Source of the DNA: an uncultured Chloroflexia bacterium
Lineage (GTDB): Bacteria; Chloroflexota; Limnocylindria; Limnocylindrales; CSP1-4
DNA length: 64,000 nt
Direction of reading: 5' to 3'
Assembly (NCBI GenBank): GCA_963732805.1
Contig: CAVTAW010000002.1
Span: 538,463-602,462, forward strand
Shown one piece after another: positions 1 to 10,971 of this stretch. The notes below the pieces were generated by a model. It saw only the letters and a list, made by a program, of their open reading frames with translations, was not told the origin of the DNA and made no database searches. The position numbers and the translations under genes were made by a program. Within the stretch, counting starts at the first letter, position 1. Each line of letters begins with the position of its first letter.

Positions 1-96
1 GCTACGTGGCGCCCTAACGTCCATCCCGGCTGCGCCCCGCGCAGCCTGACGCAGCACCGGAACAGCCCCCGCAGACGCGGGGGCTGTTCTCGTTCC
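1..96 (+). repeat. 3' tail of a further upstream copy of the CWB2 surface-protein repeat unit (last codons ..SYVAP, stop, terminator)
   Basis: Bases 1-96 read the same as 2856-2951. Bases 1-89 read the same as 5534-5622. TAA at 15-17. Confidence 0.9.
60..89 (+). terminator. Hairpin terminator candidate after surface-protein copy 0
   Basis: GAACAGCCCCCGC-AGAC-GCGGGGGCTGTTC: a perfect 13-bp stem with a 4-nt loop, 43 nt after the stop. The T-tract is weak (TCGTTCC). Confidence 0.6.
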
Positions 97-538
97 AGGG
101 CGCACTGATCGTCAGGAAACCACTCGTAGATGTCGTCCCAGCACTCGTCCACGGCTTGGTCGTGGCCCAGGAACTCGGGCCCGTCCTTCGCCGCCCGGCT
201 CTCGCATGGCGTCGACGAGGTCGGGTCGCAGGGCTGCCGTCCTCACGCGGAGCGGCTCACGGTCCAGATCGTGCCAGGTCGTACGTCGGGTCCAGCCCCG
301 CCGAGGCGGGACCAGGCGGCACGGCACAGCTGTCTGACGTCTCCGCCGGGCACCGCCGGGTCGGCGCGGTGATGGTCGATGGGCCCACCTCGAGAATGCG
401 CCCCAGGTGAACCCCCGAGTGGTTGCGAAGACCGTCCGTGCCGGGCTGGGCGATGCTACGATTCCTCCATTCGGCCCACATCTGCAGTGGCCACCAATGG
501 TCATGCGCATGGACCCACACAGGGGAGACGTGGTCAAG

Positions 539-2872
539 ATGCCCATCGCCAGAACTACTCGCAGGCGCCGCTGGGGTGTCGTAGCAGCCTCCGTCAGCGT
601 CATGATGCTCGTCACGCTGTTCGCCCCGCTCACGGTGTCGGCCTCCATCCAGGCTGCCACCACCGGGGCTCAATCGCCGAATCCGGTCACAGCCGGCAAC
701 AGCGCGACCTACTCGATCGCCGTGAGGAGCGGAAACACCTCACACAGAGTCCAGGTCACCAGCATCACCGGGCTCCCCACCGGGGCAGGGTTCAGTTCCA
801 CCTGCGCTCTCGCAAACTCGGTTGGCAATACGTCAATCACACTGACGATCACGACCAACGCGAGCACAACGCCGGCGGGCACGTCACCGTTCACCCCGCA
901 TCTCACGATGTACACCAGCGGCACCTCGTGTACGGGAGGCGTGAATGATACCGGCGACGCGACTGCTGGATCGCTTGTCGTCCAGGCGGCCGGCCCCGTG
1001 GATCAGACGATCACCTTCGACCCGATCGCGGACAAGACCTACGACCCGACCCTGGCGGTGCCGCTGACCGCGACGGCAACCTCCGGGCTGACCGTGACGT
1101 TCAGCTCCCTCACGCTGGGCGTGTGCACCGTGTCGGGTGCGAACGCGATCCTGGGTGACGGCCTCGGAACCTGCACCATCCAGGCCGACCAGGCCGGCAA
1201 TGGGTCCTACAATCCCGCGCCGTCCGTGACCCAGAGCTTCGACATCGGCAAGGCCGATCCGGACTGCACAAACGTTCACGGCTACTCGGACACCTATGAC
1301 GGCGATGCGCATGGCGCGGATGGCGACTGCCTCGGCGTCATGGGCGAGAACCTCGGCCAGATCGGCGGGCTCGACTACGGGGCGTCGTTCACCAACGTCC
1401 CGGGCGGCACGGCCAACTGGACGTACACCGACCAGACCGGCTTCTACAACGACGCGTCGGGCTCGGCAGCCATCACCATCGTCAAGGCCGACCCGATCTG
1501 CACCATCGTCGGCTTCTCGGGCCCCTATGACGGCGACCCGCACGGGGCCAGCGGCTCCTGCCTCGGCGTCAAGGGCGAGACCCTCGCCGGGCTCGATCTC
1601 GGTGACTCGTTCACGAACATCCCCGGCGGCACCGCCGTGTGGACGTTCACCGACGTCACCGGCAACTACAACAACACCGACGGCGAGGCCAACATCGTCA
1701 TCGGCACCGGCGACCAGACGATCACGTTCGGCGCGCTGGCCGACAAGCCCCTGGGCACCGCCCCCTTCGGGGTCAGCGCGACCGCCTCGTCGGGCCTGAC
1801 GGTCACCTTCAGCTCGACCACCACGGGCGTGTGCACGGTGTCGGGCACGACCGTGACCCTCGTCAACGTGGGCACCTGCACGATCAAGGCCGACCAGGCC
1901 GGCAACGGCAACTGGAACGCCGCGCCGTCGGTCAGCCAGAGCTTCACGGTCACGGGCGGTGGCGTGAGCCGGATCGCCGGCCACGACCGCTACGAGACCG
2001 CCGCGATGCTCTCGGCCGCGACGTTCGACCCCGGTGTGCCGGTGGTCTACATCGCGACCGGCCAGACCTTCCCGGATGCGCTGGCCGCTGGGCCGGCTGC
2101 CGGGCATGACGGTGGCCCGATCCTGCTCGTCACCAAGGACTCCATCCCGGCGTCCGTCGCCACCGAGCTGACCCGGCTGAACCCGGGCCGGATCGTGGTC
2201 CTGGGCGGCACGGGCACCATCTCGACTGCCGTCCAGACGGCGCTCGGCACCTACACCAGCGGCTCGGTCACCCGGATCGCCGGCTCCGACCGCTACCAGA
2301 CCGCCTCGATGCTCTCGGCCGCGGTGTTCCCTGTCGACGTTGACATCGTCTACATCGTGACCGGCCAGAACTACCCCGACGCCCTTGCCGGAGGCCCGGC
2401 CGCCACCCATGACGGTGGCCCGATCCTGCTGGTCACGACCAACTCGATCCCGGCGTCGGTCGCCGCGGAGCTCACCCGGCTCAACCCGGCTGACATCGTC
2501 ATCCTGGGTGGCACGGGCACGGTCTCGGCCGGCGTCCAGACCAGCCTCGCCGCGTACACCAGCGGCACGGTGACCCGCATCGCCGGCTCCGACCGCTACG
2601 CCACCGCCGCCGCGCTCTCGAACGCGACGTTCGGCACCGGCCTTCCGGTCGTCTACGTGGCAACCGGGCAGACCTTCCCCGACGCGCTCGCCGCTGGGGC
2701 GGCTGCGTCGGCCGACGGCAGCCCGATCCTGCTCGTGACCAAGACCTCGATCCCGGCGTCGGTCGCCACCGAGCTCACCCGGATCACCCCCGGCCGCATC
2801 GTGGTCCTGGGTGGCACGGGCACCGTGTCGGCCGCCGTGATGACCGCGCTCGGCAGCTACGTGGCGCCCTAA
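539..2872 (+). CDS. Secreted cell-wall-associated surface protein, copy 1. Domains: signal peptide, variable N-terminal Ig-like domain, 2 Ig-like repeats, 2 MBG-like (YDGD) repeats, 3 CWB2 repeats
   Basis: Part of ORF 407..2872. ATG at 539 (MPIARTTRRRRWGVVAASVSVMMLV..SAS) follows GGGGAG. Two DQTITF..CTV..QAGNxxY..SF units and two KADPxCT..YDGDxHGAxGxC units. Three RIAGxDRYxTA..PDALAxGxAA..PILLV..LGGTG units typical of cell-wall-binding repeat 2. Confidence 0.85.
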   Translation: MPIARTTRRRRWGVVAASVSVMMLVTLFAPLTVSASIQAATTGAQSPNPVTAGNSATYSIAVRSGNTSHRVQVTSITGLPTGAGFSSTCALANSVGNTSITLTITTNASTTPAGTSPFTPHLTMYTSGTSCTGGVNDTGDATAGSLVVQAAGPVDQTITFDPIADKTYDPTLAVPLTATATSGLTVTFSSLTLGVCTVSGANAILGDGLGTCTIQADQAGNGSYNPAPSVTQSFDIGKADPDCTNVHGYSDTYDGDAHGADGDCLGVMGENLGQIGGLDYGASFTNVPGGTANWTYTDQTGFYNDASGSAAITIVKADPICTIVGFSGPYDGDPHGASGSCLGVKGETLAGLDLGDSFTNIPGGTAVWTFTDVTGNYNNTDGEANIVIGTGDQTITFGALADKPLGTAPFGVSATASSGLTVTFSSTTTGVCTVSGTTVTLVNVGTCTIKADQAGNGNWNAAPSVSQSFTVTGGGVSRIAGHDRYETAAMLSAATFDPGVPVVYIATGQTFPDALAAGPAAGHDGGPILLVTKDSIPASVATELTRLNPGRIVVLGGTGTISTAVQTALGTYTSGSVTRIAGSDRYQTASMLSAAVFPVDVDIVYIVTGQNYPDALAGGPAATHDGGPILLVTTNSIPASVAAELTRLNPADIVILGGTGTVSAGVQTSLAAYTSGTVTRIAGSDRYATAAALSNATFGTGLPVVYVATGQTFPDALAAGAAASADGSPILLVTKTSIPASVATELTRITPGRIVVLGGTGTVSAAVMTALGSYVAP

Positions 2873-2944
2873 CGTCCATCCCGGCTGCGCCCCGCGCAGC
2901 CTGACGCAGCACCGGAACAGCCCCCGCAGACGCGGGGGCTGTTC
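971..2944 (+). repeat. Tandem direct repeat block, copy 1 (identical to 3649-5622, period 2678 bp)
   Basis: Translations in all three + frames and several - frames are identical between copies (for example 1296..1799 = 3974..4477 and 2371..2580 = 5049..5258). Identity starts abruptly at 971/3649 and ends at 2944/5622. Confidence 0.9.
2915..2944 (+). terminator. Hairpin terminator candidate after copy 1
   Basis: Same 13-bp stem and AGAC loop as at 60-89. Confidence 0.6.
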
Positions 2945-3219
2945 TCGTTCCGTGAACGAGCGGGACATGGGCTCGCAACCGTCAACGACGTGCCTGGGGA
3001 TCACGCATGGCGTGCACGGTGGACCATCCAGCAGCGGGATCAGCGTCGTGATGGTCGAAACGCCGCCGTCGAGAAACGCGCTTCAGATGGACCCGAAAGC
3101 CATTTGCGGAGTCCGTCCGTGCCGGTCGCCCGATGCTACGATTCCTTCAATCAGGCCCACATCTGCAGTGGCCACCTATGGTCACGTGCATGGACCCACA
3201 CAGGGGAGACGTGGTCAAC

Positions 3220-5550
3220 ATGCCCATCGCCAGAACTACTCGCAGGCGCCGCTGGGGTGTCGTAGCAGCCTCCGTCAGCGTCATGATGCTCGTCACGCTG
3301 TTCGCGCCGCTCGCAGTGTCAGCCTCCATCTCGAGTGCCGTGATTGGGGCCCAGTCGCCGAACCCGGTCCCCGCTGGCACCAGCGCGACCTACTCGATCA
3401 CCGTGACCAGCGGCTCTACGTCGCGCGGGGTCCAGGTAGTGAACGTTACCGGCCTTCCGACCGGCGCTGGATGGAGCTCCGACTGCATTGTCGCGAACTC
3501 CAGTGGCACCACGCACATCACCCTGACGATCACGACGAATGCGACCACGACGCCGGTCGGCACGACGACGTTCACCGCGTGGGTGGAGGCGTACAGCAGT
3601 TCGACGGGCTGTACCGGCAGTTTCAACGCCTTGGCCTTTCCCAGCCACTCGCTTGTCGTCCAGGCGGCCGGCCCCGTGGATCAGACGATCACCTTCGACC
3701 CGATCGCGGACAAGACCTACGACCCGACCCTGGCGGTGCCGCTGACCGCGACGGCAACCTCCGGGCTGACCGTGACGTTCAGCTCCCTCACGCTGGGCGT
3801 GTGCACCGTGTCGGGTGCGAACGCGATCCTGGGTGACGGCCTCGGAACCTGCACCATCCAGGCCGACCAGGCCGGCAATGGGTCCTACAATCCCGCGCCG
3901 TCCGTGACCCAGAGCTTCGACATCGGCAAGGCCGATCCGGACTGCACAAACGTTCACGGCTACTCGGACACCTATGACGGCGATGCGCATGGCGCGGATG
4001 GCGACTGCCTCGGCGTCATGGGCGAGAACCTCGGCCAGATCGGCGGGCTCGACTACGGGGCGTCGTTCACCAACGTCCCGGGCGGCACGGCCAACTGGAC
4101 GTACACCGACCAGACCGGCTTCTACAACGACGCGTCGGGCTCGGCAGCCATCACCATCGTCAAGGCCGACCCGATCTGCACCATCGTCGGCTTCTCGGGC
4201 CCCTATGACGGCGACCCGCACGGGGCCAGCGGCTCCTGCCTCGGCGTCAAGGGCGAGACCCTCGCCGGGCTCGATCTCGGTGACTCGTTCACGAACATCC
4301 CCGGCGGCACCGCCGTGTGGACGTTCACCGACGTCACCGGCAACTACAACAACACCGACGGCGAGGCCAACATCGTCATCGGCACCGGCGACCAGACGAT
4401 CACGTTCGGCGCGCTGGCCGACAAGCCCCTGGGCACCGCCCCCTTCGGGGTCAGCGCGACCGCCTCGTCGGGCCTGACGGTCACCTTCAGCTCGACCACC
4501 ACGGGCGTGTGCACGGTGTCGGGCACGACCGTGACCCTCGTCAACGTGGGCACCTGCACGATCAAGGCCGACCAGGCCGGCAACGGCAACTGGAACGCCG
4601 CGCCGTCGGTCAGCCAGAGCTTCACGGTCACGGGCGGTGGCGTGAGCCGGATCGCCGGCCACGACCGCTACGAGACCGCCGCGATGCTCTCGGCCGCGAC
4701 GTTCGACCCCGGTGTGCCGGTGGTCTACATCGCGACCGGCCAGACCTTCCCGGATGCGCTGGCCGCTGGGCCGGCTGCCGGGCATGACGGTGGCCCGATC
4801 CTGCTCGTCACCAAGGACTCCATCCCGGCGTCCGTCGCCACCGAGCTGACCCGGCTGAACCCGGGCCGGATCGTGGTCCTGGGCGGCACGGGCACCATCT
4901 CGACTGCCGTCCAGACGGCGCTCGGCACCTACACCAGCGGCTCGGTCACCCGGATCGCCGGCTCCGACCGCTACCAGACCGCCTCGATGCTCTCGGCCGC
5001 GGTGTTCCCTGTCGACGTTGACATCGTCTACATCGTGACCGGCCAGAACTACCCCGACGCCCTTGCCGGAGGCCCGGCCGCCACCCATGACGGTGGCCCG
5101 ATCCTGCTGGTCACGACCAACTCGATCCCGGCGTCGGTCGCCGCGGAGCTCACCCGGCTCAACCCGGCTGACATCGTCATCCTGGGTGGCACGGGCACGG
5201 TCTCGGCCGGCGTCCAGACCAGCCTCGCCGCGTACACCAGCGGCACGGTGACCCGCATCGCCGGCTCCGACCGCTACGCCACCGCCGCCGCGCTCTCGAA
5301 CGCGACGTTCGGCACCGGCCTTCCGGTCGTCTACGTGGCAACCGGGCAGACCTTCCCCGACGCGCTCGCCGCTGGGGCGGCTGCGTCGGCCGACGGCAGC
5401 CCGATCCTGCTCGTGACCAAGACCTCGATCCCGGCGTCGGTCGCCACCGAGCTCACCCGGATCACCCCCGGCCGCATCGTGGTCCTGGGTGGCACGGGCA
5501 CCGTGTCGGCCGCCGTGATGACCGCGCTCGGCAGCTACGTGGCGCCCTAA
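3220..5550 (+). CDS. Secreted cell-wall-associated surface protein, copy 2 (same architecture, different N-terminal domain)
   Basis: Part of ORF 3133..5550. ATG at 3220 with the same signal peptide as copy 1. Residues after the signal peptide, up to ..SLVVQAAGP, differ from copy 1. The rest is identical. Confidence 0.85.
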   Translation: MPIARTTRRRRWGVVAASVSVMMLVTLFAPLAVSASISSAVIGAQSPNPVPAGTSATYSITVTSGSTSRGVQVVNVTGLPTGAGWSSDCIVANSSGTTHITLTITTNATTTPVGTTTFTAWVEAYSSSTGCTGSFNALAFPSHSLVVQAAGPVDQTITFDPIADKTYDPTLAVPLTATATSGLTVTFSSLTLGVCTVSGANAILGDGLGTCTIQADQAGNGSYNPAPSVTQSFDIGKADPDCTNVHGYSDTYDGDAHGADGDCLGVMGENLGQIGGLDYGASFTNVPGGTANWTYTDQTGFYNDASGSAAITIVKADPICTIVGFSGPYDGDPHGASGSCLGVKGETLAGLDLGDSFTNIPGGTAVWTFTDVTGNYNNTDGEANIVIGTGDQTITFGALADKPLGTAPFGVSATASSGLTVTFSSTTTGVCTVSGTTVTLVNVGTCTIKADQAGNGNWNAAPSVSQSFTVTGGGVSRIAGHDRYETAAMLSAATFDPGVPVVYIATGQTFPDALAAGPAAGHDGGPILLVTKDSIPASVATELTRLNPGRIVVLGGTGTISTAVQTALGTYTSGSVTRIAGSDRYQTASMLSAAVFPVDVDIVYIVTGQNYPDALAGGPAATHDGGPILLVTTNSIPASVAAELTRLNPADIVILGGTGTVSAGVQTSLAAYTSGTVTRIAGSDRYATAAALSNATFGTGLPVVYVATGQTFPDALAAGAAASADGSPILLVTKTSIPASVATELTRITPGRIVVLGGTGTVSAAVMTALGSYVAP

Positions 5551-5622
5551 CGTCCATCCCGGCTGCGCCCCGCGCAGCCTGACGCAGCACCGGAACAGCC
5601 CCCGCAGACGCGGGGGCTGTTC
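3649..5622 (+). repeat. Tandem direct repeat block, copy 2
   Basis: See 971-2944. Confidence 0.9.
5593..5622 (+). terminator. Hairpin terminator candidate after copy 2
   Basis: Same hairpin as at 60-89. Flanking sequence diverges from 5623. Confidence 0.6.
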
Positions 5623-5648
5623 CCTGTCTGATGAACGTGCGGGAGCGT

Positions 5649-6662
5649 TCAGGTGCCCGCCAGGAGACGATGATCGGTGAGATCGCGCCGGATCCGGGCC
5701 TCGGCGCTCACGTCGCCCGGTGCGACGCGGTCAAGTGCCAGGAGCGCGGCACCCAGCACCGGTGGTGCGCGCAGGACCCGGACCGAAGCATTCGGGGCCA
5801 CGGCGCGCACGCGCTGGGCCACCGCGCCGGCCAGCAGCACGTCGGCCCCCCGGGCGACGCCTCCCGACAGGACGACGGGCACCTCCCTTCGTGCCAGCCC
5901 CAGGCGCCGGATCGAGGCGATCGCGAACGCCGCGCACTCGTCGGCCAGGTCACCGATCAGGCCGAGGGCGACCGCATCGCCGGCTGCCGCGGCCTTGACC
6001 GCAACCGATGCCAGCTCGCTCGTGCGCGCCTCCGCGATCCGTCCCGCGTAGATCGCCGCGGTCACGTCGGCCGGCCGCCGGAGCCCGAAATGGGCGGGCA
6101 CGAGGTCGGCCAGGCTCGTTCGGGGTCCCCTGCCGTCCTGCGCCCGTACCGCGGCCCCGAGGGCGCCCATCCCCAGCTCACCACCGCCGCCGCGGTCGCC
6201 GCTGATCGGGCCCAGGCCGGCGAACCGGGCTCGCCGGCCGTCGGGCCCGATCCCGACCGCGTTGATGCCGGCGCCGACGACGATGCCCACGCCCCAGCCG
6301 AGGGGTGATCCGGCGCGCAGCCCCGCGACGGTGTCGTTGTCCAGGATCAGTGTCCCGGCGATTCCCGTTGCTCCGTGAGCACGGGCCAGCGCCCGCCTGT
6401 CGGACGGCAGGTCCATGCCGGCGAGGCACAGGACGCCGATGGTTGCGACGGGCCGCCTGTCGCGCTGACCGAGGTCCAGACCCGCACGGGACGTCGCGCC
6501 GTCCACCTGCCGCCGCAGCCGCCGGGCAGCCTCGTCCAGGCCGACCTGCTGGTGCGACACGGTCGGTCCGCGCGACCCCACCACGACGGCGCCGTCGGCG
6601 GTGAACAGCGCGAGATCGGTCTTCGAGTTCCCGCCGTCGACGGCGAGGAGCAGATCGCTCAC
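5649..6662 (-). CDS. BadF/BadG/BcrA/BcrD-type ATPase, N-acetylglucosamine-kinase-like sugar kinase
   Basis: MSDLLLAVDGGNSKTDLAL.. N-terminal phosphate-1 motif. GxGINAVG and SGGV motifs of the ASKHA fold. Confidence 0.75.
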   Translation of the reverse strand: MSDLLLAVDGGNSKTDLALFTADGAVVVGSRGPTVSHQQVGLDEAARRLRRQVDGATSRAGLDLGQRDRRPVATIGVLCLAGMDLPSDRRALARAHGATGIAGTLILDNDTVAGLRAGSPLGWGVGIVVGAGINAVGIGPDGRRARFAGLGPISGDRGGGGELGMGALGAAVRAQDGRGPRTSLADLVPAHFGLRRPADVTAAIYAGRIAEARTSELASVAVKAAAAGDAVALGLIGDLADECAAFAIASIRRLGLARREVPVVLSGGVARGADVLLAGAVAQRVRAVAPNASVRVLRAPPVLGAALLALDRVAPGDVSAEARIRRDLTDHRLLAGT

Positions 6663-7309
6663 CCGCCGCCCGCCAGACCGGACGACGGACTCCCGGCCGC
6701 CAGCGAGTCGAGCGCATCCACGGTCACGAACGTCGCGCCTTCATCGCGCAGGCGCCGGATCGCCTCCTCGAGGGCGAGGGGGGTCGCGCTCGGCCAGCCG
6801 TGCAGCAGCACGATCGCGCCATCGCCGTGCGCCAGCGTGCCCCGGACCAGCCGGCCCTCGATCCGTCCGGCACTGCCACCGGCCCAGTCGCGCCCATCGA
6901 CGTCCCAGCCGACGTCCACGTAGCCGGCCGCCGCCAGCCGGTCGATCACCCGACGAGACCCGGCGCCGGCACCGAACGGACACCGGAACCACGGTCGCGG
7001 GTCCTGCCCTGTGGCGGCCAGGATCGCAGCCTCGGCCGCACGCACGTCGCGCACGATGCCGGCCCCGGTCAGCATCGTCATCCGCGCATGGTGGTGGGAA
7101 TGGTTGCCCACCAGGTGCCCGTCTTGCGCGATCCGGGCAGCCACGTCGGCCTCCGCCTCGGCCCAGCGTCCCTGGACGAAGAACGTCGCCCGGACACGGG
7201 CTTCGCCCAGCACGTCCAGGATCCGCGTGGTGACGCCGGGCTCCGTGGGCCGGTCGGCGCACTCCGCGTCGATCGTGAGCGCGGCCCGGAACGGCGGATC
7301 GGCGCTCAC
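6659..7309 (-). CDS. Polysaccharide/chitooligosaccharide deacetylase (NodB homology domain)
   Basis: TIDAE..TFFVQG..GNHSHHH..RCPFGAG motifs. 4-nt overlap with the kinase gene. Confidence 0.8.
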   Translation of the reverse strand: MSADPPFRAALTIDAECADRPTEPGVTTRILDVLGEARVRATFFVQGRWAEAEADVAARIAQDGHLVGNHSHHHARMTMLTGAGIVRDVRAAEAAILAATGQDPRPWFRCPFGAGAGSRRVIDRLAAAGYVDVGWDVDGRDWAGGSAGRIEGRLVRGTLAHGDGAIVLLHGWPSATPLALEEAIRRLRDEGATFVTVDALDSLAAGSPSSGLAGGG

Positions 7310-8430
7310 TTCTCGACCCCCGTGATCACGACCCCGCGGATGAACACCCGCTGGAAGATCAGGAACAGGATCACGGGGATCAGCATCGTCATCAGCGTAC
7401 CGGCCTGCACATAGGCCGGGTTGCGGTAGTGGATGCCGTTGAAGCGTTGCAGGCCGACCGCCAGCGGCTGGAGCTCGGGCTTCGTGGACAGGTAGATGAG
7501 GGGCTCAAAGAAGTCGTTCCACGAGTACACGAGGTGGAAGATCGCGACGGCGACGACCACCGGCCACGCCTGCGGCAGGATCACCGATACCAGCGTCCGG
7601 AACGGGCCGGCCCCGTCGATCGACGCCGCCTCGTCCATCTCGCGCGGGATCGTCAGCAGGTACTGGCGCAGCAGGAACACGTCGTACGCGTTGGCGAAGA
7701 AGGTCGGCACGAGCAGGGGCAGCCAGGTGCCGACCCAGCCGATCTTGGCGAAGATCGTGTACGTGGGCACGATCGTCACCGCCGCGGGCAGGAAGATCGT
7801 GGCGATCAGGATCGTGAACAGCAGCGACCGGCCGGGGAACCGGAACCGGGCGAAGCCGTAGGCAACCAGGGTGCACGAGGTGAGCATGCCGACCATGCCG
7901 ATGAGCGAGATCGCGATCGTGTTGAACAGCAGGCGCGGGAAGTCGATGAGGTCCCAGACATCGGCGTAGTTCTGCCACGCGGGGGACAGGGTCCACGCTC
8001 GCTCCAGCGTCCGCCACGAGCCATCCCAGGTGACGAGGCCTGCGCCCGGATCGGCCGGGTCCACGAACTGGCTCTGCGTCCGACCGGGCTTGACCAGGGC
8101 AAGCGTCCGGTCCACGCCGTCGATCGGGACCACGTACACGTCATAGGCCTTGCCCTCGAAGTCGAACGTCTGGGGCACGGAAGGCAGGAAGGGGGCATTC
8201 GTCTCGGACAGCTGGGCGGGTGTCTTGAGCGACACCATGACCGAGCGCAGGATCGGCGACAGGAACGCGGCCAGCACGACCACGATCACGAACGTGACGA
8301 TGAACGATCGACCGGCATCGCGGGCCTGGCGCGGCCTGATCGGCCGGCGCGGCAATCGCCTCACGCGCCTCGCGCGCCGGGTTGCGTCGGCGGTGGCGAG
8401 GTCCTGGAGCTGGCCAGCGCTGGTGTCCAT
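7306..8430 (-). CDS. Carbohydrate ABC transporter permease (MalG-like, with a large extracytoplasmic loop)
   Basis: Multi-TM protein with an EAA-type loop (..EMDEAASIDGAGPFRT..). Confidence 0.8.
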   Translation of the reverse strand: MDTSAGQLQDLATADATRRARRVRRLPRRPIRPRQARDAGRSFIVTFVIVVVLAAFLSPILRSVMVSLKTPAQLSETNAPFLPSVPQTFDFEGKAYDVYVVPIDGVDRTLALVKPGRTQSQFVDPADPGAGLVTWDGSWRTLERAWTLSPAWQNYADVWDLIDFPRLLFNTIAISLIGMVGMLTSCTLVAYGFARFRFPGRSLLFTILIATIFLPAAVTIVPTYTIFAKIGWVGTWLPLLVPTFFANAYDVFLLRQYLLTIPREMDEAASIDGAGPFRTLVSVILPQAWPVVVAVAIFHLVYSWNDFFEPLIYLSTKPELQPLAVGLQRFNGIHYRNPAYVQAGTLMTMLIPVILFLIFQRVFIRGVVITGVEK

Positions 8431-8439
8431 CGACCGGCG

Positions 8440-9405
8440 CTACCGCTCGCCCGCGTAGTACACCCAGCGCCGCGAGGTCCGGAAGACCAGCAGCGACACG
8501 ACCAGGGTCACCGCGAACAGCAGCCAGGCCAGGGTCGCGCCGTACGCCATGTTCTGGTAGGTGAAGAAGTTCTTGTACAGGTAGAGGTTGAAGAACAGGG
8601 TCGTCCCGCCCGGCTCGCCGGTCCCGTTGTTGAGCACCAGTGGGACCAGGAAGTACTGGAGGACCTCCACGATCCCCAGCACCAGGGTGTAGAAGATGAC
8701 CGGCGACATCATCGGCAGGGTCACGTGCCGCAGCGACCCCCACCAGCCCGCCCCGTCGATGCGCGCGGCGTCGTACAGCTCCGACGGGATCCCGCGCAGG
8801 CCGGCCAGGTTGACGATGATCCCGGACCCGATGCCCCAGATGCCGATGAACACGAGGGCGGGGTAGATGAACGCCGTGTCGTTGAGCCAGTTGGGCGGGT
8901 TCTCGACGCCGGTGAAGCGAAGGAACGCGTTCACCCAGCCGGTCTCGAGGTTGAGCATCCCCTGCCAGATCAGCACGCCCGAGACGAACGGGATGACGTA
9001 GGGCATGAAGAACAGGACCCGGAAGATGCCCGGGCCCTTGAGATTCCGGCTGTTGAGGGCCAGCGCCAGGATGAACGGCAGGATCATGGCCACCGGCAGC
9101 TGGAGCAGGGCAAAGCGGAACGTGACGCCCAGCGCGTCCCAGGTCTGCTGGTCGCTGAACAGGGTCTGCCAGTTGTGGAGGCCGACGAGCTGGAGCGGCT
9201 CCTCCTGGGCGAGGTTGATGTTGGTGAACGTGAACACCAGCGACGCCACCATGGGCGCGAGCGTGAACAGGAGGAAGCCGATGATCCACGGCGCGAGGAA
9301 GATGTACCCCCAGCGCGCTTCGCGCCGGGCGAGCGGCGACATCCGCAGGATGGCCGGCCGGCGCACGAACCCGCGGCGACCGGCGGGCGGCGTGGCGGCG
9401 GTCAC
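8440..9405 (-). CDS. Carbohydrate ABC transporter permease (MalF-like)
   Basis: Six TM segments and an EAA loop (..LYDAARIDGAGWWGS..). Confidence 0.8.
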   Translation of the reverse strand: MTAATPPAGRRGFVRRPAILRMSPLARREARWGYIFLAPWIIGFLLFTLAPMVASLVFTFTNINLAQEEPLQLVGLHNWQTLFSDQQTWDALGVTFRFALLQLPVAMILPFILALALNSRNLKGPGIFRVLFFMPYVIPFVSGVLIWQGMLNLETGWVNAFLRFTGVENPPNWLNDTAFIYPALVFIGIWGIGSGIIVNLAGLRGIPSELYDAARIDGAGWWGSLRHVTLPMMSPVIFYTLVLGIVEVLQYFLVPLVLNNGTGEPGGTTLFFNLYLYKNFFTYQNMAYGATLAWLLFAVTLVVSLLVFRTSRRWVYYAGER

Positions 9406-9513
9406 CCTGTCTGCCTCCGGGCGGTCATCGGCTCCTCGTGCGGTGCGCTGTGGCCGCGCCCGCGGTTGTGCGGACGCGGCCGGGAATGGCGGCCGGACCA
9501 GCCAGCCGCGGCG

Positions 9514-10971
9514 CTACGGCTGCTTGTCCCAAATGGCCTGGATCTCGGAGCGAAGCGCCTCGAACTCCTGGTCCATGTTGAGGCCCTGGTCGGTCTGCCA
9601 CTTCGTCGTGTACTTGCCGCCCGATCCCACCAGGCCGAGGGTCTCGTTGTAGGCGGGCATGTACGACTCGAAGTTGGGGTTGTCGGCGAACTGGATGCTG
9701 TCGATCGCGACCTGCCAGTCCGGCTTCTGGGTGAACGTCTCGTCCTGGCCGGCGAAGAAGGCATCCTGGTCGGCCGTGCGGGCGGGCATGCCGCCGTAGG
9801 TGGCGAGCAGCTCCGGTGCGCCGTCACCCAGCAGGTAGGTCAGCACCTGGAACGCCTCGTCGGGATGCTTGGTTCCCTTGAGGATCCGGAACGTGTCGGC
9901 GTTGAACGCGGACGTGACCGTGCCGTTGTAGGCGGGCACGATCCCCATGTCCCAGTCCCCGTTCAGGCCTTCGAGGCCATAGGTGGACCACAGGAAGTTG
10001 AGGCTCATCGCGATCTTGCCCGTGAAGAACGGGTAGTCCTCGGGATTGATGTCGGGGCTGCTGAACACGGGCCCGGTCATGCTGATGTGGTCCGTCCACA
10101 TCCCGTTGTACCAGAACGTCCAGGCGGCCTTCCACGCATCCGGGATCTGGGCCGTCTTGCCATCCGCCCCGCCGGCCAGGGCGCCGGCGCCAAAGTACGC
10201 GCCCATCCCGCGCAGGTCGTCTCGCTGGGGCTCGAAGCCCCACTGGACGATGTTCTTGGGGTCGAAGCCGGCCTGGGTGGCGTCCTTGCCGTTCTTGTCG
10301 ACGGTCAGGATCTTCGCCACCTGGCGGATCGTGTCGTAGTTCCACTCGACCTGGGAGCCGTCGGGCATCGTGTACATGTCGCCGTACTTGTGCGGCGGCT
10401 CGGCCAGGCCCGCCTCCACGAACAGGCTCTTGGCGTAGAACAGCACGGACGGGTAGATCGCGAACGGGATGCCGACCTGGCCCTCGTCCAGCTTGTAGAT
10501 GTTCACGGCGTCCTGCGGGAAGCCCGACAGGTCGTATCCGGTTTGCTGGATCAGGGGCGCCAGGTCCAGCCACTGGCCGTGGAAGGCGTTGGCGCCGCCG
10601 ATGCCGACCGGCCCCACGATGTCGGGGCCGTTGCCGGAGGCGATCTCCGTGGCGAGCGCGTCATTCGCGCCGGCGTAGGGCACGGCCTCGAAGGTGAGCT
10701 TGATGTTGGGATGGCTGGCGTTGAACTCCTCGACGACCTTCTTCTCGACGTCAACCTGTTCGGGTGCGTCACCGCCGCCGAGGCAGCAGTACCAGCGGAT
10801 CTCGACCTGGCCCTCCGCGGGCGTTGCGGCCGGCGTCCCGGGTGCGGCGGACTCCGGGGTGGTCGGTCCGCTCGTGGCCCCGCCGGGTGCGGTGGTCGTC
10901 GTGGTGCCGCCGCACGCGCCGGCGATGATCGCCAGCACTCCTGCTGCGGCGAAGGCTCGGATCGCTCGCAT
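9514..10971 (-). CDS. Extracellular sugar-binding lipoprotein of the ABC transporter
   Basis: ORF 9514..10992. ATG at 10971 follows AGGAGGAG. Lipobox ..LAIIAGAC, then a Thr/Pro-rich linker. Confidence 0.8.
   Translation of the reverse strand: MRAIRAFAAAGVLAIIAGACGGTTTTTAPGGATSGPTTPESAAPGTPAATPAEGQVEIRWYCCLGGGDAPEQVDVEKKVVEEFNASHPNIKLTFEAVPYAGANDALATEIASGNGPDIVGPVGIGGANAFHGQWLDLAPLIQQTGYDLSGFPQDAVNIYKLDEGQVGIPFAIYPSVLFYAKSLFVEAGLAEPPHKYGDMYTMPDGSQVEWNYDTIRQVAKILTVDKNGKDATQAGFDPKNIVQWGFEPQRDDLRGMGAYFGAGALAGGADGKTAQIPDAWKAAWTFWYNGMWTDHISMTGPVFSSPDINPEDYPFFTGKIAMSLNFLWSTYGLEGLNGDWDMGIVPAYNGTVTSAFNADTFRILKGTKHPDEAFQVLTYLLGDGAPELLATYGGMPARTADQDAFFAGQDETFTQKPDWQVAIDSIQFADNPNFESYMPAYNETLGLVGSGGKYTTKWQTDQGLNMDQEFEALRSEIQAIWDKQP

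Follow-up and report, generated by a model that had tools for sequence, protein, structure and literature searches.

The window analysed here, a stretch of 64,000 nucleotides (contig C2, positions 538463-602462) from an uncultured soil/freshwater bacterium of the Limnocylindria (Chloroflexota), opens within a tandem array of three genes for CWB2 surface proteins, called c0, c1 and c2 in their order along the forward strand. The stalk, wall anchor and terminator region of these genes are identical in DNA, while the N-terminal tip domains in front of them are deeply diverged. We think it probable that RecA-type gene conversion homogenises the stalk, the anchor and the terminator, while old tips persist and are sometimes exchanged between strains. 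The source genome (G000) is a metagenome assembly of 3.94 Mb in two contigs, with an estimated completeness of 73%, and the copy number and the identity of the blocks are given as they stand in this assembly.

A preliminary description, made from the sequence of the window, had proposed a tandem array of at least three CWB2 surface-protein genes, and the PF04122 profile (196.7 bits, against a cut-off of 24.9) indeed finds three CWB2 repeats in each of the c0, c1 and c2 proteins. A search of the whole genome with the same profile gave nine CWB2 units, all within c0, c1 and c2, which are the sole CWB2 genes of G000, and blastn of one unit against the genome gave three tandem copies and no more; the count is therefore exactly three in this assembly. 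The window begins in the end of copy 0, as had been described, since positions 1-96 are 100% identical to 2856-2951 (and 96% identical to 5534-5629), and reading the contig upstream of the window recovered this copy at C2:536158-538479. The proposed period of 2678 bp holds for the identical block, but the parts upstream of it repeat at 2681 bp. All three open reading frames (ORFs, about 775 codons) are intact and co-oriented, the spacers have mostly unrelated sequences, and the array ends in unique sequence from 5623 on. With gene starts set at MPIART, the features are as follows (window positions).

-2304 to 17 (C2:536158-538479), forward strand: c0 coding sequence, 773 amino acids, mostly upstream of the window; type-A immunoglobulin-like (Ig-like) tip on the common stalk and anchor.
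1 to 17, forward strand: end of c0, last 17 nucleotides with the stop codon.
18 to 96, forward strand: c0 3' tail with two GC-rich hairpins, inside the identical block.
97 to 451, no strand: spacer particular to c0-c1, which begins with sequence unrelated to that between c1 and c2.
452 to 538, forward strand: c1 leader, conserved, with a putative promoter.
539 to 2872, forward strand: c1 coding sequence, 777 amino acids.
539 to 649, forward strand: c1 signal peptide (MPIARTTRRRRWGVVAASVSVMMLVTLFAPLTVSASI), as read by eye.
650 to 970, forward strand: c1 tip, type-B Ig-like beta-sandwich (predicted) with two Cys.
971 to 2944, forward strand: c1 block identical to c2 3649-5622, 1974 bp; from 1004 also identical to c0.
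1004 to 1963, forward strand: c1 stalk of four domains (Big-like, MBG-like, MBG-like, Big-like), named by resemblance and the Pfam labels of homologues.
1964 to 2869, forward strand: c1 wall anchor, three CWB2 repeats of 303 nt.
2873 to 2951, forward strand: c1 3' tail with terminator-like hairpins, where the identical block ends.
2952 to 3131, no strand: spacer particular to c1-c2.
3132 to 3219, forward strand: c2 leader, conserved.
3220 to 5550, forward strand: c2 coding sequence, 776 amino acids.
3220 to 3330, forward strand: c2 signal peptide.
3331 to 3648, forward strand: c2 type-B tip.
3649 to 5622, forward strand: c2 block identical to c1 971-2944.
3682 to 4641, forward strand: c2 stalk.
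4642 to 5547, forward strand: c2 wall anchor, three CWB2 repeats.
5551 to 5629, forward strand: c2 3' tail with terminator-like hairpins.

The block shared by c1 and c2 (971-2944 and 3649-5622) comprises 1974 bp with 0 mismatches at a spacing of 2678 bp, found both by a repeat finder and by an ungapped walk from the stop codons, and the base-for-base identity through the terminator that had been noted at first is thus exact. The perfect block of c0 and c1 is 1948 bp long (-1851 to 96 in c0, 1004 to 2951 in c1) and that of c0 and c2 1941 bp, and the last 622 residues are identical across all three proteins. The preliminary description had pointed to synonymous sites as the place where a hidden divergence might appear; over these 622 codons (about 509 synonymous sites) the three copies show no difference, and the numbers of synonymous (dS) and nonsynonymous (dN) substitutions per site are 0 in all pairs (dS and dN values are Nei-Gojobori counts throughout). 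The breakpoints lie at 971 and 1004 on the left and at 2944 and 2951 on the right, the right-hand boundary falling just beyond the terminator-like hairpin. At the tip/stalk junction, identity jumps from 21/50 to 50/50 within one 50-nt step, and in c0 identity sets in precisely where the first stalk domain begins (QTITF).

The promoter-proximal region and the signal peptide, described earlier as conserved, are 93-96% identical in DNA between c1 and c2. For the signal peptide (95.5% DNA identity) dS is 0.10, dN 0.013 and dN/dS 0.12, and for leader and signal peptide the dS in comparisons that involve c0 is about 0.2 (range over the copies 0.1-0.25). The tips of c1 and c2, estimated by eye at roughly 60% identity, reach 65% identity in DNA and 63.6% in protein (75/118 residues). 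Comparison of their synonymous and nonsynonymous differences, which had been recommended, gives a dS of 0.78, a dN of 0.31 and a dN/dS of 0.40, and the c0 tip, at 22-26% protein identity to the other two, gives a dS of 1.2-1.45, a dN of 1.0-1.1 and a dN/dS of about 0.8. Each gene is therefore a mosaic with sharp breakpoints, along which dS between c1 and c2 rises from 0.10 (signal peptide) to 0.78 (tip) and then drops to 0 for the remainder of the gene. Because the nearly saturated dS of the tips stands beside 509 untouched synonymous sites, the two parts must have different histories. The early suggestion that the exposed tip diversifies does not agree with these values, since synonymous sites are near saturation, dN/dS is 0.25-0.4 and the c0 tip comes from another family; judged by the substitution counts, the tips are old, distinct modules on one homogenised chassis and not domains that evolve fast in place.

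The family relationships of the tips were followed in protein collections. A region-restricted search with the c0 tip (type A) found 25 proteins at 46-68% identity in several phyla, including Candidatus Staskawiczbacteria, Gallionella, Georgfuchsia and Dehalococcoidia, some of them with two or three tandem copies of the domain, and in P0013, P0129 and P0057 a type-A tip is carried on similar Big/MBG stalks, with or without CWB2. For the tips of c1 and c2 (type B), an exhaustive HMMER search against 1.84 billion representatives gave 40 clusters, 11 of them at E <= 1e-10 and with a best identity of 53%, in which the domain lies mostly at residues ~36-152, immediately after the signal peptide. 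The type-B tip aligns with a common 'TGLPxG...STLTxTT...GTY' Ig-like repeat, relative to which it has an insertion that holds one of its two Cys. A structure prediction of the tips had been proposed, and AlphaFold models both types as confident Ig-like beta-sandwiches (pLDDT, the predicted local distance difference test, 82-94 for type B and 89.7 for type A). Foldseek searches against the PDB with both tip models retrieved only generic Ig-like or fibronectin type III-like (FN3-like) folds, without indicating a function; a Pfam search of the tips and the stalk found no significant family in the Pfam copy used, and a profile-profile comparison of type A with type B was not significant (probability 7.7%), although both Cys align. 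An antigenic role of the tips, or one in adhesion or phage recognition, may be supposed. The GC content at third codon positions (GC3) is 93.7% in the shared block (971-2869), and 76.5%, 84.9% and 89.1% in the tips of c1, c2 and c0, respectively, the genome proxy being 87 +/- 4.6; this pattern is compatible with high expression and its codon use, with GC-biased conversion or with a foreign c1 tip, which it does not separate.

A type-B head occurs on a different tail in a related genome (L030, G020 C14:32000-43000), where the ORF at 4931-7066 encodes a 711-aa protein without a CWB2 match. Its signal peptide, type-B tip and first Big-like domain are 53% identical to c1 residues 1-240.

A contig from an independent assembly, L024 (European Nucleotide Archive, ENA, ERZ25039495 contig_7693, 3072 bp), allows a comparison between close strains. 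It was found through a 53-aa fragment, the sole foreign member of the 90% cluster of c0, and represents one unit of a closely related array, equivalent to window positions 141 to 2941 and broken off at the borders of the repeat. Its stalk has an additional Big-like domain, and it shows several frameshifts of the sort typical for long-read contigs of low coverage; it seems to be a thinly covered strain variant that the assembly kept apart. Against c1, the spacer (141-478) is 98.8% identical, the leader 100% and the signal peptide 98% (dS 0), whereas the tip is 74.7% identical (dS 0.72, dN/dS 0.25), the stalk 91% (dS 0.12-0.14) and the anchor 93.6%. Thus, at the same chromosomal position (c1), two close strains carry deeply diverged type-B tips, and the stalk differs by 9% between G000 and L024 and not at all among the three G000 copies; over the homogenised part, the paralogues are 100% identical within G000 against 91-94% to L024, as expected for concerted evolution. 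The L024 pattern looks like homogenisation within each genome plus recombinational replacement of the tip, as far as this single short and error-prone contig allows. Searches for further alleles gave no match to the signal-peptide DNA in the JGI metagenomes, only distant relatives in a protein-pattern search of metagenome and genome collections, and no further alleles in exact look-ups of the flanking proteins and the L024 fragments.

The same homogenisation is seen in other genomes of the genus. Many CWB2 genes, often in adjacent pairs, were found in the 41 related genomes searched, and four such pairs were compared: L014 (G019 C3:380000-395000), L015 (G004 C31), L016 (G008 C3) and L017 (G020 C4). 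The pair is syntenic in the four genomes and encodes proteins of ~785 and 1170 aa with unrelated N-terminal parts; in G019 the compared segments of L014 are 5201-6073 and 8941-9813. Within each of G019, G004 and G008, the six CWB2 units (303 nt) agree with one another at 97-100% (100% in G008), whereas units from different related genomes share only 62-75% identity. In G020, homogenisation is confined to the single gene: units of one gene are 98.5-100% identical, those of different genes ~70%. CWB2 units more alike within than between genomes were thus seen in five genomes of one genus, and homogenised anchors recur in four species besides the one studied here. The identity of units within the genomes of the relatives implies that gene conversion of the CWB2 module is routine in this lineage. 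An anchor query gave 'Candidatus Limnocylindria bacterium' records as its nearest named matches.

The abrupt switch from diverged to identical sequence had been attributed to gene conversion at the outset, and this is still the best explanation of a dS of 0 over 622 codons beside a tip dS of 0.78; conversion, rather than re-duplication, is the probable source of the identity. In the mechanism that we propose, homologous recombination between neighbouring copies (conversion and possibly unequal crossing-over) would repeatedly overwrite the stalk, the anchor and the terminator, which would thereby evolve as one sequence within a genome. The conversion tract would end at the tip/stalk junction, where homology falls to ~40% identity, and selection may hold this boundary, as an overwritten tip would be a distinct function lost. 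The tips, all of them old, are a single type-A domain in c0 and, in c1 and c2, a pair of type-B alleles that have diverged deeply, and tips could be replaced from strain to strain by recombination, with the leader/signal peptide and the stalk as homology arms.

Several observations weigh against this proposal. The CWB2 units within one G000 gene are only 75-82% identical to each other, unlike those of the relatives; the putative conversion in G000 works only between corresponding positions of the genes (in register) and reaches across the whole stalk. The nearest species to have kept the downstream operon show no such array at the corresponding position, and the array could be young. In a metagenome assembly, repeat handling or polishing could slightly inflate a perfect identity. 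Finally, the mosaic by itself is silent on which part moved, and a recent duplication with foreign tips would fit it equally.

This last alternative, in which a complete gene was very recently duplicated in tandem and the tips were then imported by recombination, the identity of the block reflecting its youth, is possible, although we consider it rather unlikely. It would account for L024, whose tip differs by 25% while its spacer is 99% identical, so that tips are evidently replaceable, for the absence of the array next to the conserved downstream operon in G011 and G001, for leader and signal-peptide DNA found in no other species of the genus searched, and for the GC3 of the c1 tip (76.5%), which lies under the genome range of ~87 +/- 4.6 and fits a foreign origin. 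However, leaders and signal peptides differ between the copies (dS 0.1-0.25) and the spacers are largely unrelated, so that the units are older than the identical block. Moreover, three separate tip imports would need almost one shared end junction, and the conserved gene pairs of the relatives are certainly old and their anchors are still identical.

An artefact of assembly or polishing, giving a wrong copy number or one consensus to diverged repeats, would be conceivable in a metagenome assembly of two contigs with 73% estimated completeness, but we hold it to be improbable. Three different tips and three different spacers stand in one contig, which a collapse would not yield, the three ORFs of ~775 codons are intact, and L024, from an independent assembly, is one unit with the same architecture that breaks at the repeat borders. 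Related assemblies also resolve near-identical CWB2 copies (97-99.6% in G004 and G019), indicating that small differences are not always flattened. Least credible of all is that the tips were driven apart in place after a recent duplication, by positive selection or a targeted mutator such as a diversity-generating retroelement, since, even though the variable part is the predicted outermost domain and its dN is high (0.31 for c1/c2), tip dS is as diverged as measurable (0.72-0.78) with a dN/dS of 0.25-0.4, the c0 tip belongs to another family with relatives in other phyla, and the neighbourhood holds neither a reverse transcriptase nor a template repeat.

Three particular devices were considered and rejected. 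For a diversity-generating retroelement, no reverse transcriptase was found nearby by Pfam (the rest of the genome was not scanned for one) and there is no extra tip repeat, and the tip differences include saturated synonymous change. Hypermutation in place is contradicted by the dS values of the tips. Switching by silent cassettes or promoter inversion does not suit three full-length co-oriented ORFs, each with a leader, ribosome-binding site and terminator-like hairpins, and no recombinase nearby.

The encoded proteins consist, in order, of a signal-peptide-like N-terminus, a tip of ~115 residues, a beta-rich stalk with four domains and three CWB2 repeats. The N-terminus, MPIARTTRRRRWG followed by a hydrophobic run and SAS/ALA, reads by eye like a Sec-type signal peptide. 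In the stalk, the repeat finder gives 75-81% DNA identity for the Big-like pair and 78% for the MBG-like pair, and these domains are named after the sequences that they resemble and after the Pfam labels precomputed for their homologues (PF16640, PF18676). The three CWB2 units within one gene share 75-82% mutual identity. By analogy with the Cwp proteins of Clostridioides difficile, the triple CWB2 anchor probably binds a secondary wall polymer (PSII-type) non-covalently, and, given a wall-bound anchor, the tip would be the part furthest from the wall. No more than two observations hint at an S-layer, namely that these are the sole CWB2 proteins of the genome and that the shared block has a GC3 at the upper end of what the genome shows. 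On the other contig of G000 (C1:769765-770812), a large ORF holds four tandem ~250-nt units with 66-67% DNA identity to the second Big-like stalk domain.

Upstream of each gene, ~90 nt of conserved leader hold an extended -10-like motif, short palindromes and a ribosome-binding site (GGGGAGA). The extended -10-like motif is GATGCTACGAT at 452-462 (c1) and 3132-3142 (c2), and GATGCTACGCT in c0. The leader (452-538, 3132-3219, and ~10075-10158 of L013) also holds the palindrome GTGGCCAC and an imperfect hairpin, TGGTCATGCGCATGGACCA, in which one pair changes from T-A to C-G in copy 0, a single compensatory change; RNAalifold on four leaders gave no support for covariation. This hairpin could be an operator or a stem that stabilises the mRNA. 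Two strong hairpins lie 3' of each gene, the second with a U-rich tail: in the c0 tail it lies at 63-89 and is followed by UGUUCUCGUU, terminator-like, and in c1 the 83 nt at 2873-2955 fold at -50.4 kcal/mol (z = -5.7). Alignment and folding brought out the leader motif and the hairpins, and a scan for consensus promoters and terminators called neither the leader promoter nor a hairpin terminator; their roles as promoter and terminator are putative. With its own leader, ribosome-binding site, start codon and terminator-like hairpins, each copy looks independently expressible. An Rfam scan of the array and the leaders gave three sub-threshold chance matches only, all within the repeat.

Upstream of the array lie genes for a molybdenum hydroxylase, a TauE exporter, a luciferase-like oxidoreductase, a major facilitator superfamily (MFS) transporter and a DUF1801 protein, and downstream those for a BadF-type kinase, a polysaccharide deacetylase and ATP-binding cassette (ABC) permeases. 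Pfam identified no recombinase, reverse transcriptase or wall-polymer gene among the neighbouring ORFs searched, which were the ten longest of the 10 kb preceding the array and four of the 4 kb following it. G011, G001 and G014 share the operon that follows the array (ABC permeases, deacetylase, BadF kinase) in syntenic order, and in none of them does a CWB2 gene adjoin it; the leader and signal-peptide DNA matches only G000 itself among 70 genomes of the genus. As the leader DNA is confined to G000 among these genomes and the operon of the relatives has no CWB2 neighbour, the array is species-specific.

A shorter relative of the array proteins, P0057 (L040, ENA ERZ25039495 contig_1576, 8001-9728), has a type-A-like tip, one Big-like domain and three CWB2 repeats. 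It sits in a glycan-synthesis cluster of another Limnocylindria contig, together with genes for Bac_transf, several glycosyltransferases, a DegT aminotransferase and a FemAB-like protein, and this cluster is a candidate locus for the CWB2-bound wall polymer.

The array is an unusually clean natural case of bacterial gene conversion bounded by a domain, with 0 differences over 1.94 kb in three copies beside saturated tips, and homogenisation of the CWB2 anchor acts across a whole genus of uncultured Chloroflexota, although no new mechanism is revealed. It separates what is free to differ in these proteins, the N-terminal Ig-like tip, from what must stay uniform, the stalk and the wall anchor, and it points to what the cell may show to phages and surfaces in a lineage without cultured members. 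It is also a warning that such arrays are likely lost or collapsed in short-read bins, which may explain why no match was found in fragmented relatives. A more speculative view, which we think doubtful, is that the locus is a platform for tip exchange and that the genus-wide homogenisation of the CWB2 anchor is adaptive rather than passive. If so, the leader/signal peptide and the homogenised stalk would be fixed homology arms for trading tips, and strains would share a population-wide library of Ig-like tips serving as phage receptors or adhesins. Conversion would spread a new anchor variant to all paralogues at once, keeping every displayed protein matched to a wall glycan that changes between species, and in CWB2 display in Limnocylindria, anchor and glycan would evolve together as a pair, with heads that can be exchanged.

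It is already known that paralogous genes for surface proteins can convert parts of one another. A full-text literature search found no paper joining CWB2 with gene conversion, and only passing mentions of CWB2 together with Chloroflexi. In the sap genes of Campylobacter fetus, in pilE/pilS and in vlsE, one promoter or expression site is served by silent copies through inversion or unidirectional conversion. These systems share with the array the clustering of surface-protein homologues and an identical anchor block beside variable parts, but here each copy has its own leader, start codon and putative terminator, the copies all point the same way and the neighbourhood shows no recombinase gene. 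Paralogous genes for outer-surface adhesins undergo partial gene conversion in Helicobacter pylori (babA/babB) and in Neisseria (opa). Ectopic recombination is also described for the FLO cell-surface genes of yeast (PMC3512402). The likeness to bab, opa and FLO lies in near-identical segments of paralogues beside a diverged ligand-binding part, with recombination that shuffles or homogenises them; phenotype-changing chimaeras are documented there, whereas in the array, as read from this assembly, no chimaeric or switched variant was seen and the three copies all look constitutively complete. Concerted evolution of prokaryotic paralogues has been surveyed (PMC6053082), and the likeness is that paralogues are more alike within a genome than orthologues between species; compared with it, here only a part of the gene is concerned, with a boundary at the level of a domain, and in surface proteins.

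A close likeness is that to the Cwp proteins and the SlpA S-layer cassette of C. difficile, in which a triple CWB2 anchor (PF04122) is also joined to a variable outward part and the paralogues are clustered. The Cwp paralogues of C. difficile have diverged anchors, whereas the anchors and stalks of the paralogues described here are identical in DNA; the host is a member of the Chloroflexota and not of the Firmicutes, and the anchor is C-terminal, behind a stalk of Ig-like repeats. Strains of C. difficile exchange the variable outer domain of SlpA through homologous recombination, and phages use this domain as a receptor (PMC7677006, PMC10100898, PMC12680318). For the array no S-layer, cleavage site or wall-polymer locus is shown; the variation of its exposed part between strains resembles that of SlpA in looking like recombinational replacement between conserved flanks.

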